64,000 bases of DNA. It comes from a phage. Shown here in pieces: positions 5,928-8,012 of the stretch (positions are counted from its first letter, which is position 1; the number at the start of each line of letters is the position of its first letter). The stretch lies in sequence record PX068456.1. The stretch is one strand, 5' to 3'. The notes beneath the pieces are model-generated. The model was not told the DNA's origin. It was given only the letters and a program-made list of their open reading frames with translations, and did not search any database. The translations under genes were made by a program, and so were the position numbers.

Positions 5928-8012
5928 TTATCTTCCTCGGATACTATATGGAGAAGATAAAGAGTTTCTTGATCTTCCACCCATCTTACCATACCCTGTT
6001 AATGCATTTGTTGCAGAAGGTATTGCTACTGCTTTAAACATCTGTTCTTTTGACAAAGTATTAAAGCAAGATGCAGCAGCATCTGGAATATCATCTTTTA
6101 ATGTTGCTGTAGATCTTTCTCCATTAAACGACTCCATCTCTTTATAGAAATGATCAAGAGTTTCTTTGTTAGGGAAAGATTCTTCTACAATATAAACAAA
6201 ACCATTTTGACAAGCACTACTAAATGGCATAAAGCGTTGTAGTTTTTTCTTGTTACCAGGCATAGCGTCTGGTTTAACAACAAACCCTTCAGCAATTAGT
6301 TTTTTAGCTGATTCTGTATATTCAATCAAACCAGCACCAGAAGGATCTTTTGGCAATACAACTGTAACTTCATCTCCATCAATCTTACATTGGTTTAGAA
6401 TTAAATTATCTCGATCACCTGGTAGTCTTCTGAATCTACCAAAAATTTTACTACCTTCATCGTGAGCATCGTAATCATAATCACCAAAAATGTAATAATT
6501 TCCATCAGAGTCTTTAGCCATTTTAACAGATGTTGTGTAGTCAGGATAACGATAAGATTCTGTTGGAACAGATACTGCTTTATCCCACGCTCGCATATAT
6601 TTAAGATTGTTTGGTAAATCTTTAAACTTGATAACGTGTAACCATTCTCTGTTAAAGAAACTCTCTTCTTGCGCACGAGCAAACCAACAACCATCTAAAA
6701 GCTGTGCTCTCTTAACGGCGGTTTGAGCCTTCAAAGAAGCTAAGTATTTAGGGTTAAGTCTTATTAGTTCAGGGTTATCAAAGATAGTACCACCAATGAA
6801 CACAAATGTTTGTGGTTCAATAACCACTGTTTCACCTGTGTTTGGGTTTTGCATAAAACAGTTTTCAGGATACTTTTCTTTCAACTCTTCTGCTGTTTCA
6901 GCAAATACTGGTTCATCTTGCACAATAAGAAAGTATAGCTGTTTGCCACACATATCTTCCCGTGGATAACCAGCTTCATCCAAATAAGGAAGTACCCATT
7001 TCAACACCCAACTGTCAGCATCAGGGTTACAAGTACACAGCATAAAAGATGTTTCTGATTCAGAACGCATACGCCCTAACAGATACAGCATTTCATATTG
7101 TGTAAAATGTGTAAGTTCGTCAAACCCTACCATCGAATACTGTGTACCTTGATGGTTAGTTTCAGCAGTTACGTTATCATTTTCAAGATGGTCAAATTTA
7201 AGTGTGCCACCTTTTGTGGCTCTGAACTCCATCTCCATAGCCTGTTCTCTTACGTGAGGCTTTAATGGTAGATAAAGTTTTTTAGCTTCAGTAAACAAAC
7301 CACCAGATTTACGTAAAGCTGTTGTATTTTTACGGAAAAGAATACCACCAAACAGTGGATCTTTATATGCGTATTTAAGTGCCTTTAGAAGTAGCAGACG
7401 GCTTTTGCCGCTATTCCCAGTAACGAAGATGTGATCGCCACGTCTAAACACGACATAACTGCTTGGAGTTTCAAAGCAATATTTCTTATCATCACTTGTC
7501 ATTACCTCATGAATTTTTAGATATGTGCTAGGTTTACCTTGAATGTTAAACGGAACACGTTTACCAAAAGGATTTTCAATATATCCTCGTAATGGGTGTC
7601 CTGCTTGCTGTAGTGCAATAAGATCCCCAACAAGAATTTCAAAATGTTTTTTGGATTTTTTCTTCTTGTAGAAAACAAAGCGATGTTCCATACTTAATTC
7701 TTGGAAGACACCTATTCCGTTTGTGATACAATACAGATTATCTTTAGCATCATATTCTACAAAAGATGGTGTAACTAATTCAAGACGTTTATTTCTTGGA
7801 TTGTATTGATAAATATCCTCACCATCATATTCACTTATTTGTTTCCAACCGTCTCTTGTTAAGTATTCTGTTTCTGCTGAAACACAACCTGCCGCACCAC
7901 CATAAATCATTACTTCAGGCATAAGATCCATAGCTAGTGTTTGTTTGCCAGGTTGGGCTTTAACTTCAATATCTACATTTTCAAAAGATTGTTTGACAGG
8001 TTTCCTTGCCAC
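5928..8012 (-). CDS. terL: terminase large subunit, P-loop interrupted by an intein-like insertion
   Basis: 694 aa; N-terminal ...IYGGAAG then a Cys-initiated insertion then SGKSRLLLLKA, which reconstitutes a GGAAGSGKS Walker A; nuclease-domain-sized C-terminus. Confidence 0.85.
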   Translation of the reverse strand: MARKPVKQSFENVDIEVKAQPGKQTLAMDLMPEVMIYGGAAGCVSAETEYLTRDGWKQISEYDGEDIYQYNPRNKRLELVTPSFVEYDAKDNLYCITNGIGVFQELSMEHRFVFYKKKKSKKHFEILVGDLIALQQAGHPLRGYIENPFGKRVPFNIQGKPSTYLKIHEVMTSDDKKYCFETPSSYVVFRRGDHIFVTGNSGKSRLLLLKALKYAYKDPLFGGILFRKNTTALRKSGGLFTEAKKLYLPLKPHVREQAMEMEFRATKGGTLKFDHLENDNVTAETNHQGTQYSMVGFDELTHFTQYEMLYLLGRMRSESETSFMLCTCNPDADSWVLKWVLPYLDEAGYPREDMCGKQLYFLIVQDEPVFAETAEELKEKYPENCFMQNPNTGETVVIEPQTFVFIGGTIFDNPELIRLNPKYLASLKAQTAVKRAQLLDGCWFARAQEESFFNREWLHVIKFKDLPNNLKYMRAWDKAVSVPTESYRYPDYTTSVKMAKDSDGNYYIFGDYDYDAHDEGSKIFGRFRRLPGDRDNLILNQCKIDGDEVTVVLPKDPSGAGLIEYTESAKKLIAEGFVVKPDAMPGNKKKLQRFMPFSSACQNGFVYIVEESFPNKETLDHFYKEMESFNGERSTATLKDDIPDAAASCFNTLSKEQMFKAVAIPSATNALTGYGKMGGRSRNSLSSPYSIRGR
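7413..7886 (-). other. putative mini-intein (Hint domain) within terL, residues about 43-200
   Basis: starts CVSAETEYLTRDGW (block A-like), has an internal SMEHRF (block B TxxH-like), ends ...HIFVTGN followed by Ser; about 158 aa, too short for a homing endonuclease domain. Confidence 0.5.

Follow-up and report, generated by a model that had tools for sequence, protein, structure and literature searches.

The large terminase (TerL) gene of a phi92-like Escherichia coli phage carries an in-frame insert of 158 amino acids (aa) that very probably is a functional mini-intein without an endonuclease domain. The gene lies at 5928..8012 on the minus strand of the window, by which we mean the whole 64,000-nucleotide stretch of sequence record PX068456.1; the source phage belongs to Justusliebigvirus (Stephanstirmvirinae), and its TerL gene is 99% identical to that of many such genomes. 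The insert comprises TerL residues 43-200 and would excise itself from the precursor and join G42 to S201. In front of it, aa 32-42 read PEVMIYGGAAG, the insert itself runs in frame from CVSAETEYLTRDGW to RRGDHIFVTGN, and the protein then resumes with SGKSRLLLLKALKY. When the insert is deleted, GGAAGSGKS results, a canonical Walker A motif of the pattern GxxxxGK[ST]. An earlier examination of the letters alone (the sequence-only reading) had placed an intein-like insertion at 7413-7886, splitting this motif and leaving it contiguous upon removal, with Cys as the first residue and Asn followed by Ser at the end. Re-translation reproduced these coordinates and residues exactly, and Cys1, Asn158 and Ser+1 are all present. 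The features are listed here, a slash marking the insertion point.

5928..8012, minus strand: TerL precursor gene; 694 aa, ~79.2 kDa; Pfam Terminase_6N (E 1e-16) and Terminase_6C (E 7e-4)
7887..8012, minus strand: N-extein; aa 1-42, with the first half of Walker A at its end (..MIYGGAAG, aa 35-42)
7413..7886, minus strand: predicted mini-intein; 158 aa, ~18.5 kDa; TerL aa 43-200, from Cys1 to Asn158
7884..7886, minus strand: codon of Cys1, the putative N-terminal nucleophile, in block A (CVSAETEYLTRDGW); Cys in 150 of 151 family representatives
7671..7712, minus strand: block B, GVFQELSMEHRFVF; aligned to S65/H68/R69/M70 of the AceL NrdHF intein (PMC7891396)
7692-7694, 7683-7685 and 7680-7682, minus strand: block B residues S65 (B:7), H68 (B:10) and R69 (B:11); F70 is B:12
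7494..7667, minus strand: variable linker; intein residues ~74-131, including a helix at 86-94; site of the central domain in ~90% of relatives
7446..7487, minus strand: block F, KKYCFETPSSYVVF; Cys137 (F:4) at 7476-7478
7410..7433, minus strand: block G, HIFVTGN/S; Thr156 (G:5), Gly157 (G:6), Asn158 (G:7); Ser+1 codon at 7410-7412
5928..7412, minus strand: C-extein; aa 201-694 and stop; opens with the second half of Walker A, SGKSRLLLL

Terminases with and without the insert

The host protein is a TerL of the Terminase_6N type, with an ATPase domain, a C-terminal RNaseH-like nuclease and a Walker A motif that is intact once the insert is removed. The Terminase_6N match (61.7 bits, cut-off 22) starts only at aa 201, at profile position 8, and the C-terminal match to Terminase_6C is weaker and falls just short of its cut-off. 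The C-extein comprises the nuclease domain and the remainder of the ATPase domain, and the spliced protein has a computed mass of ~60.8 kDa.

Alignment to intein-free terminases had been proposed as a check, and homologues without the insert indeed run directly into SGKS. A tblastn search with the insert-free TerL matched 1260 phage records. The P-loop is uninterrupted in the TerL of Vibrio phage K408 (~50-54% identical, the extein 50%; VMIYGGSAGSGKSRLLL), of the rV5-like phage FFH2 (ILVIGGAAGSGKS) and of Felix O1 (LVLYGGAAGAGKT), the Walker A motif of all three reading G-[SA]-A-G-[SA]-G-K-[ST], whereas in the window GGAAG is followed by the 158 aa and then by SGKS. The insert was present in 56/56 records whose TerL reaches 99% identity or more and in 77/77 records at 80-90% identity (phAPEC8-like Phapecoctavirus and relatives), and it occurs in all 133 phage records at or above 80% TerL identity, including the propagated phages phi92 and the BASEL isolates. 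The predicted mini-intein is fixed in the TerL of Stephanstirmvirinae. Four records named 'Campylobacter phage' (MG065639, MG065645, MG065656 and MG065689; host C. jejuni) carry a TerL intein 99.4% identical to that of E. coli phi92-like phages, and in MG065639 the remainder of TerL is 99.8% identical to theirs, which suggests mislabelled or contaminating phages in this data set.

The ratio of nonsynonymous to synonymous substitution rates (dN/dS) against the ESCO13 orthologue was 0.054 for the intein (dS 1.68) and 0.055 for the extein. Intein and extein identities in the TerL lineage fall together (90.5/90.4, 87.3/84.6, 72.2/69.1, 70.3/70.8 and 69.6/69.6%), and the GC content at third codon positions of the intein (0.222) equals that of the remainder of the gene (0.231) closely. 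These measures show that inheritance has been vertical, without an endonuclease domain, since before the genera split, and recent horizontal acquisition was rejected on the co-divergence and the codon composition. A group I or II intron was rejected as well, because the insert is an uninterrupted in-frame open reading frame (ORF) that is conserved at the protein level. By these estimates the intein is under the same purifying selection as its essential host protein, and we infer that accurate splicing is the only obvious selectable property of an intein that interrupts a P-loop. After loss of the central, endonuclease-like domain found in most of its relatives, the intein would no longer be able to home and would persist by vertical descent, because its imprecise loss would destroy the P-loop.

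Inteins at this kind of site have been described in mycobacteriophages, in which TerL1-a and TerL1-b likewise lie in Walker A of the TerL ATPase domain (Kelley et al. 2016, PMC5050341). The argument from selection for splicing is supported by these mycobacteriophage TerL inteins, which do splice, five representatives including TerL1-b having done so in a reporter; modelling showed an unspliced intein to be incompatible with the TerL pentamer, and both the active site and pentamer assembly were inferred to require splicing (PMC5050341). The two cases differ in the host protein, which is of the Terminase_1 type there and Terminase_6N here, and in the site, which for TerL1-a is between Lys and Thr, whereas the insertion in the window is placed two residues further upstream and separates the fourth variable residue from the Gly of GK[ST]. 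Unlike the window intein, TerL1-b and TerL1-c have identifiable active endonuclease domains (PMC5050341).

The intein family and its fold

The insert was used as query in an exhaustive phmmer search against 1.84 billion cluster representatives, of which 730 matched at E<=1e-3 and 117 at E<=1e-10. A typical match covers query residues 1 to ~76 plus ~115 to 158 and is found in a protein of 500-1500 aa. In phages, tblastn with the insert gave weak two-piece matches, the N- and C-terminal parts ~950 base pairs apart, inside primase/helicase, PhoH, RtcB and other terminase genes. With the single insert sequence, word-indexed protein searches yielded nothing but near-identical fragments, to which the family alignment added one more distant fragment (P0156, 34% identity). 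In IMG/VR, 406 stretches encode members of this phage intein family, which is metagenomic for the most part.

For the counts of conservation, the 151 best elements were excised and aligned; these representatives share less than 50% identity. They start with the motif CV[DS]x[DE]TE[YF]L, and T6, E7 and W14 in block A are invariant or nearly so, W14 being invariant. Block B reads LSxEH, with H68 in 151/151, S65 in 132/151 (Ser or Thr in 146/151) and R69 in 100/151, and B:12 is V, I, M or F and never Trp. Block F is Y-C-F, with Tyr136 in 150 and Cys137 in all 151 elements. The end reads RRxGxxF[VI][TS]-G-N, in which T or S at position 156, G157 and N158 are each found in 151/151, and at +1 only S (67), C (44) and T (40) occur. 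The SMEHRF that the sequence-only reading had called block-B-like corresponds to intein residues 65-70 and is indeed block B, with S65 at B:7 and H68 at B:10, the [TS]xxH pattern reading S65-M-E-H68.

Of 150 elements, 116 (~77%) are inserted into the Walker A loop of a helicase or terminase (RecD-like, ResIII/DEAD and terminase ATPases), 100 of them exactly at G/xGK[ST]. The predicted family extends beyond P-loops to other conserved motifs, namely RtcB-like DIG/CGM, MetK-like GGGAF/SGKD, the vWA MIDAS motif and VS/CGAGVGTT. Some of these hosts were assigned by motif only: MetK-like in P0021, P0024, P0047 and P0122, RtcB-like in P0032 and others, and vWA in P0041, P0063 and P0100. By size, 12 elements of 139-175 aa are similar to the TerL insert, whereas ~135 (~90%) measure 294-350 aa, with a mode of ~310-330 aa. 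The larger ones contain an extra middle domain of ~160 aa with the LAGLIDADG-like motifs LRVQIAVMADG and ADFIQYAF; as the best Pfam endonuclease signal on it, LAGLIDADG_3, reaches an E of 0.033 only, the LAGLIDADG label is given mainly by inspection of the motifs. This domain is missing from the TerL insert, in agreement with the earlier claim that no endonuclease domain is present. Taken together, insertion into active-site motifs of unrelated proteins, ends of the type Cys...Asn/Ser, Thr or Cys, and an optional central endonuclease-like domain identify the family as one of inteins.

In the metagenomic protein P0059 (529 aa), two family inteins abut with no extein residue between them (...NNIFITGN/CYSEDTEIL...), so that Cys1 of the second serves the first as its +1 nucleophile, and the first copy has no Cys at position 1. 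Its extein motifs we take, on our own reading, to resemble DNA polymerase A. P0109 has a similar two-intein arrangement, with a Lys aligned at position 1. In the window, a six-frame hidden Markov model (HMM) scan found no second family copy, the next-best match having an E of 0.31.

A profile built from 41 family sequences matched the AceL NrdHF-1-1 intein (PDB 6ZGQ) with an E of 1.8e-8 over nearly the whole length and the M. jannaschii TFIIB mini-intein with an E of 0.011. The family YCF is aligned with the block-F YDL of the TFIIB mini-intein and with C124(A) of AceL NrdHF, and these alignments assign Cys137 to block F position 4. AlphaFold2, run on the insert with 12 natural mini-intein homologues, predicted an all-beta structure consisting of a single compact HINT domain (pLDDT 94.1, pTM 0.86). 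In a Foldseek search of the PDB with this model, the significant matches were all HINT domains, the best being 6ZGQ (E 5.5e-7, TM 0.70-0.72). As modelled, the TerL insert has the HINT fold, and the assignment to Hint-domain inteins made by the sequence-only reading is borne out by both searches, family profile and fold, which match solved inteins. That reading mentioned neither the invariant block-F Cys137 next to Cys1, a class 3 hallmark, nor the size of the family, nor the silence of curated intein profiles.

Splicing chemistry and rival explanations

Several points weigh against a functional intein. The insert alone matched no family in Pfam or NCBIfam even at E<=10, and among PDB sequences it gave chance-level matches only, the best single-sequence result being a WW domain (E 0.048). 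The penultimate His (G:6), which is common in inteins and not obligatory, is absent, the residue being Gly157; F:4 is Cys and not the usual class 1 Asp, and the order of the acyl transfers is uncertain. The geometry of Cys1, Cys137 and Arg69 is taken from the description of the AceL NrdHF crystal structure, and a search for proteomic or biochemical data on splicing of the TerL intein found none.

The silence of the curated profiles was rejected as an argument once the family-profile and fold searches came out positive. The intein-profile check that had been proposed was thus answered in two ways: curated Pfam and NCBIfam models stayed silent, whereas the family-built profile matched solved inteins. 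Curated profiles are built on class 1 mini-inteins and fail to detect the family of the TerL insert; ten full-length relatives and three excised full-size inteins also yielded host helicase domains in Pfam and no intein model. This failure reflects divergence and not absent homology.

The chemistry may be judged from AceL NrdHF-1-1 (Hoffmann et al. 2020, PMC7891396). Block B of this intein contains S65, H68, R69 and M70, its F:4 residue is C124, and T144-G145-N146 precede Ser+1; the counterparts in the TerL intein are S65, H68, R69 and F70, C137, and T156-G157-N158 ahead of Ser+1. The two also share a Pro four residues after Cys F:4 (P128 there, P141 in the TerL intein), a non-Trp hydrophobic residue at B:12 and a likely phage origin. 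In contrast, AceL NrdHF is a true class 3 intein with Ala1, is naturally split, its two halves being separated by a GIY-YIG endonuclease gene, and resides in the beta subunit of ribonucleotide reductase (RNR), whereas the TerL intein is contiguous, has Cys1 and occupies the TerL P-loop, and the identity between the two is only ~20%. Splicing of AceL NrdHF is nearly complete within minutes, and G145H abolishes all activity; its Arg69 (B:11) hydrogen-bonds the C-scissile carbonyl and stands in for the His, and R69A slows splicing (PMC7891396). Literature cited in PMC4031507 (refs 74, 75, 87) likewise describes inteins in which another residue takes the place of the penultimate His and Asn cyclisation is assisted from elsewhere in the intein.

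The penultimate Gly had been taken by the sequence-only reading as a reason to doubt splicing. This doubt no longer holds, given Gly-Asn in 151/151 family members, the inactivation of AceL NrdHF by G145H and the presence of R69 in the TerL intein; because Gly-Asn is invariant across the family, Gly157 is not a lesion. Since the TerL intein shares the key residues of AceL NrdHF, with R69 in 100/151 relatives, its C-terminal chemistry is most likely of the AceL type. The Ceu ClpP intein, which also has a penultimate Gly, reportedly spliced poorly in E. coli until the Gly was changed to His, a change that is helpful there and, on the opposite side, inactivating in AceL NrdHF.

According to the reading that we favour, a 79-kDa precursor would be translated with the mini-intein inside, and self-excision with ligation of G42 to S201 would restore the Walker A motif GGAAGSGKS of a 61-kDa active terminase, the junction reading ...VMIYGGAAGSGK. 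Indirect support for autocatalytic excision with ligation comes from the disrupted P-loop, the dN/dS of 0.054 and fixation in 133 phage genomes. Cys1 would start the reaction by an N-S acyl shift, while S65 and H68 of block B strain the scissile bond. The N-extein would then be transferred to Ser+1, either directly or through the adjacent invariant Cys137 (F:4), Asn158 would cyclise with Arg69 polarising the C-scissile carbonyl instead of a penultimate His, and an O-N shift would form the peptide bond. Initiation by Cys1 is the most likely route, because Cys1 is conserved across the divergent representatives; Cys137 would then either assist from F:4 or relay the acyl group to Ser+1, a weak nucleophile. 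Loss of Cys1 is evidently tolerated in the lineage, given the first P0059 copy and P0109 without it and Ala1 in AceL NrdHF.

With respect to class, the TerL intein combines traits of two groups. Like class 1 mini-inteins (Npu DnaB, TFIIB, gp41-1), it has Cys1, [ST]xxH, a C-terminal Asn, a +1 nucleophile and an endonuclease-free HINT fold of ~130-170 aa, whereas Asp at F:4 and His at the penultimate position are typical of these, in place of its Cys and Gly. Class 3 is defined by the lack of an N-terminal nucleophile together with Cys F:4 (PMC2807308; the same filter was used in PMC7891396). The TerL intein has the Cys at F:4 (C137) and the Thr at G:5 (T156) of that class, together with Cys1 at position 1 and Phe70 where Trp B:12 would be expected; B:12 of the proven class 3 intein AceL NrdHF is Met and thus not Trp either (PMC7891396). 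Because Cys1 conflicts with the definition, we did not file the TerL intein as class 3. The class 3 (WCT) inteins MP-Be DnaB and Msm/Mch DnaB-1 (PMC2807308, PMC7664689) resemble the family in Cys F:4, Thr G:5, Ser/Thr+1, a preference for helicase and terminase P-loops, a proposed phage origin and LAGLIDADG-type domains in most of them. They differ from the TerL intein by the missing N-terminal nucleophile, by Trp B:12 and by a usually present penultimate His, and the family profile gave no sequence match to canonical WCT inteins.

A class-3-type route is nevertheless the strongest rival, albeit a rather unlikely one. Here Cys137, activated by the His68-Thr156 triad, would attack the N-scissile bond without Cys1 as initiator, a block-F branched thioester would form, and the N-extein would then be handed to Ser+1. 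The combination C(F:4)/T(G:5)/G(G:6)/R(B:11) recurs in the closest relative in sequence and structure, for which class 3 splicing has been proven biochemically (PMC7891396), Cys137 and T/S156 are both found in 151/151, Ser or Thr occupies +1 in 107/151, which is typical of class 3 (PMC2807308), and a few family copies (the first P0059 intein and P0109) have no Cys1. On the other hand, Cys1 in 150/151 argues that it is required, whereas position 1 of bona fide class 3 inteins is a non-nucleophile, as both published definitions demand (PMC2807308, PMC7891396), and at B:12 the TerL intein has Phe and the family V, I or M, with Trp in none.

We put forward, tentatively and as a rather unlikely proposition, that the phi92 TerL intein family carries both initiating nucleophiles, Cys1 of class 1 and the Cys F:4-His B:10-Thr G:5 set of class 3, and may represent a 'missing intermediate'. 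If both Cys residues act, in a relay from Cys1 through Cys137 to Ser+1 or on redundant routes, class 3 would be derivable from class 1 by the single loss of Cys1. This would contradict the proposal that class 3 could not diverge from class 1 (PMC7664689), and inteins of the AceL type would have become class 3 independently of the WCT lineage.

It is improbable that the intein is conditional, with a reversible Cys1-Cys137 disulfide or metal binding keeping TerL as an inactive precursor. The packaging ATPase would then form only in a reducing or late-infection setting, and the intein would be retained as a post-translational switch and not as a pure parasite. This proposal draws on two invariant Cys at positions that lie a few angstroms apart in the homologous crystal structure, in which the C124 thiol, modelled back into AceL NrdHF, is ~3.0 A from the N-scissile carbonyl (PMC7891396). 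Long retention without a homing endonuclease also fits, as does the precedent of stress-responsive inteins in P-loop ATPases (PMC6195587; discussion in PMC5050341), but the lethality of imprecise P-loop deletion explains retention equally well, and the E. coli cytoplasm is reducing.

That the insert is a decayed, non-splicing relic kept in the mature terminase as an inserted domain, as the missing penultimate His, the missing endonuclease domain and the silent curated HMMs might suggest, is highly improbable, as GxxxxGK[ST] would stay interrupted between the fourth variable residue and the invariant Gly-Lys-Ser, every family-invariant catalytic residue is intact, the residues kept at a dN/dS of 0.054 (C1, H68, C137, N158, S+1) are the catalytic ones, and the Gly is family-invariant and required in the solved homologue (PMC7891396). 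A bacterial intein-like (BIL) domain, a type that cleaves instead of splicing and lacks a +1 nucleophile, was rejected, since the TerL intein has Ser+1 and every family element has S, C or T at that position.

Annotation, significance and gene setting

In GenBank the gene product is named 'terminase large subunit', 'hypothetical protein' or, once and misleadingly, 'large terminase with endonuclease', and sequence collections use the same names or 'uncharacterized'. The last GenBank name belongs to OR525700.1 (phage KMB37), whose insert itself has no endonuclease domain, and probably reflects the unexplained extra 158 aa. In supplementary table S5 of BASEL, 2, 0 and 1 inteins are listed for the Justusliebigvirus genomes MZ501100, MZ501063 and MZ501084, all of which carry the TerL insert at 99.4% identity. 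Because the phage listed with 0 inteins carries it, the TerL intein was not counted, and because the counts vary while the TerL intein is common to all three, other inteins that differ between isolates must be located elsewhere in some of these genomes. The four window ORFs with a length of 450 aa or more (portal, TerL, NAPRTase and RNR large subunit) showed no further intein.

A paper from 2024 states that inteins have not been reported in coliphages (PMC11162368). This paper and BASEL were the only open-access papers found to join 'intein' to these genera, neither describing the element, and a prior listing of the InBase type is possible. Terminase P-loop inteins are well known, so the kind is not new, while the instance in the window appears to have gone unrecognised. 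At least 133 sequenced genomes of coliphages and relatives, among them phi92, phAPEC8-like and BASEL model phages, carry the intein unlabelled. As standard intein HMMs miss a family of hundreds of cluster representatives, phage intein surveys underestimate the number of inteins. The combination of an invariant Cys1 and an invariant block-F Cys would make the disputed relationship of class 1 and class 3 testable. Furthermore, a compact intein of 158 aa with Ser+1 that is native to the E. coli cytoplasm may be a plausible reagent for protein engineering, since its relative AceL NrdHF splices in minutes with little side cleavage.

The TerL gene is located between the spanin genes and the portal gene. 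Its start codon is GTG, with a Shine-Dalgarno sequence AGGAGG at 8017-8022, 4 bases upstream. Two overlapping ORFs at 8021-8350 and 8256-8687 on the minus strand lie directly upstream, and the matching genes in a BASEL relative are annotated as o-spanin and i-spanin. The distal spanin-matching ORF has a lipobox-like LMMTGC and a stop codon that overlaps the Shine-Dalgarno sequence of TerL. A cluster of 16 tRNA genes, 3 of them tRNA-Met (CAT), is situated at 9812-12688 on the minus strand, upstream of the block formed by the spanin, TerL and portal genes.

The TerL gene of phages PD114 and cardinal contains a further insertion of 970 bp that is absent from the window TerL, at a site corresponding to about position 6783 of the window (TerL codon ~410, in the motif GGTIFDNP); the PD114 copy is L007:1056-2025. 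Within the PD114 insertion, Rfam RF00028 matches a group I intron (45.8 bits, E 3e-10), slightly short of the gathering score; the insertion also contains a 226-aa HNH_3 homing endonuclease ORF, and the PD114 TerL is annotated as two separate 'hypothetical proteins'.

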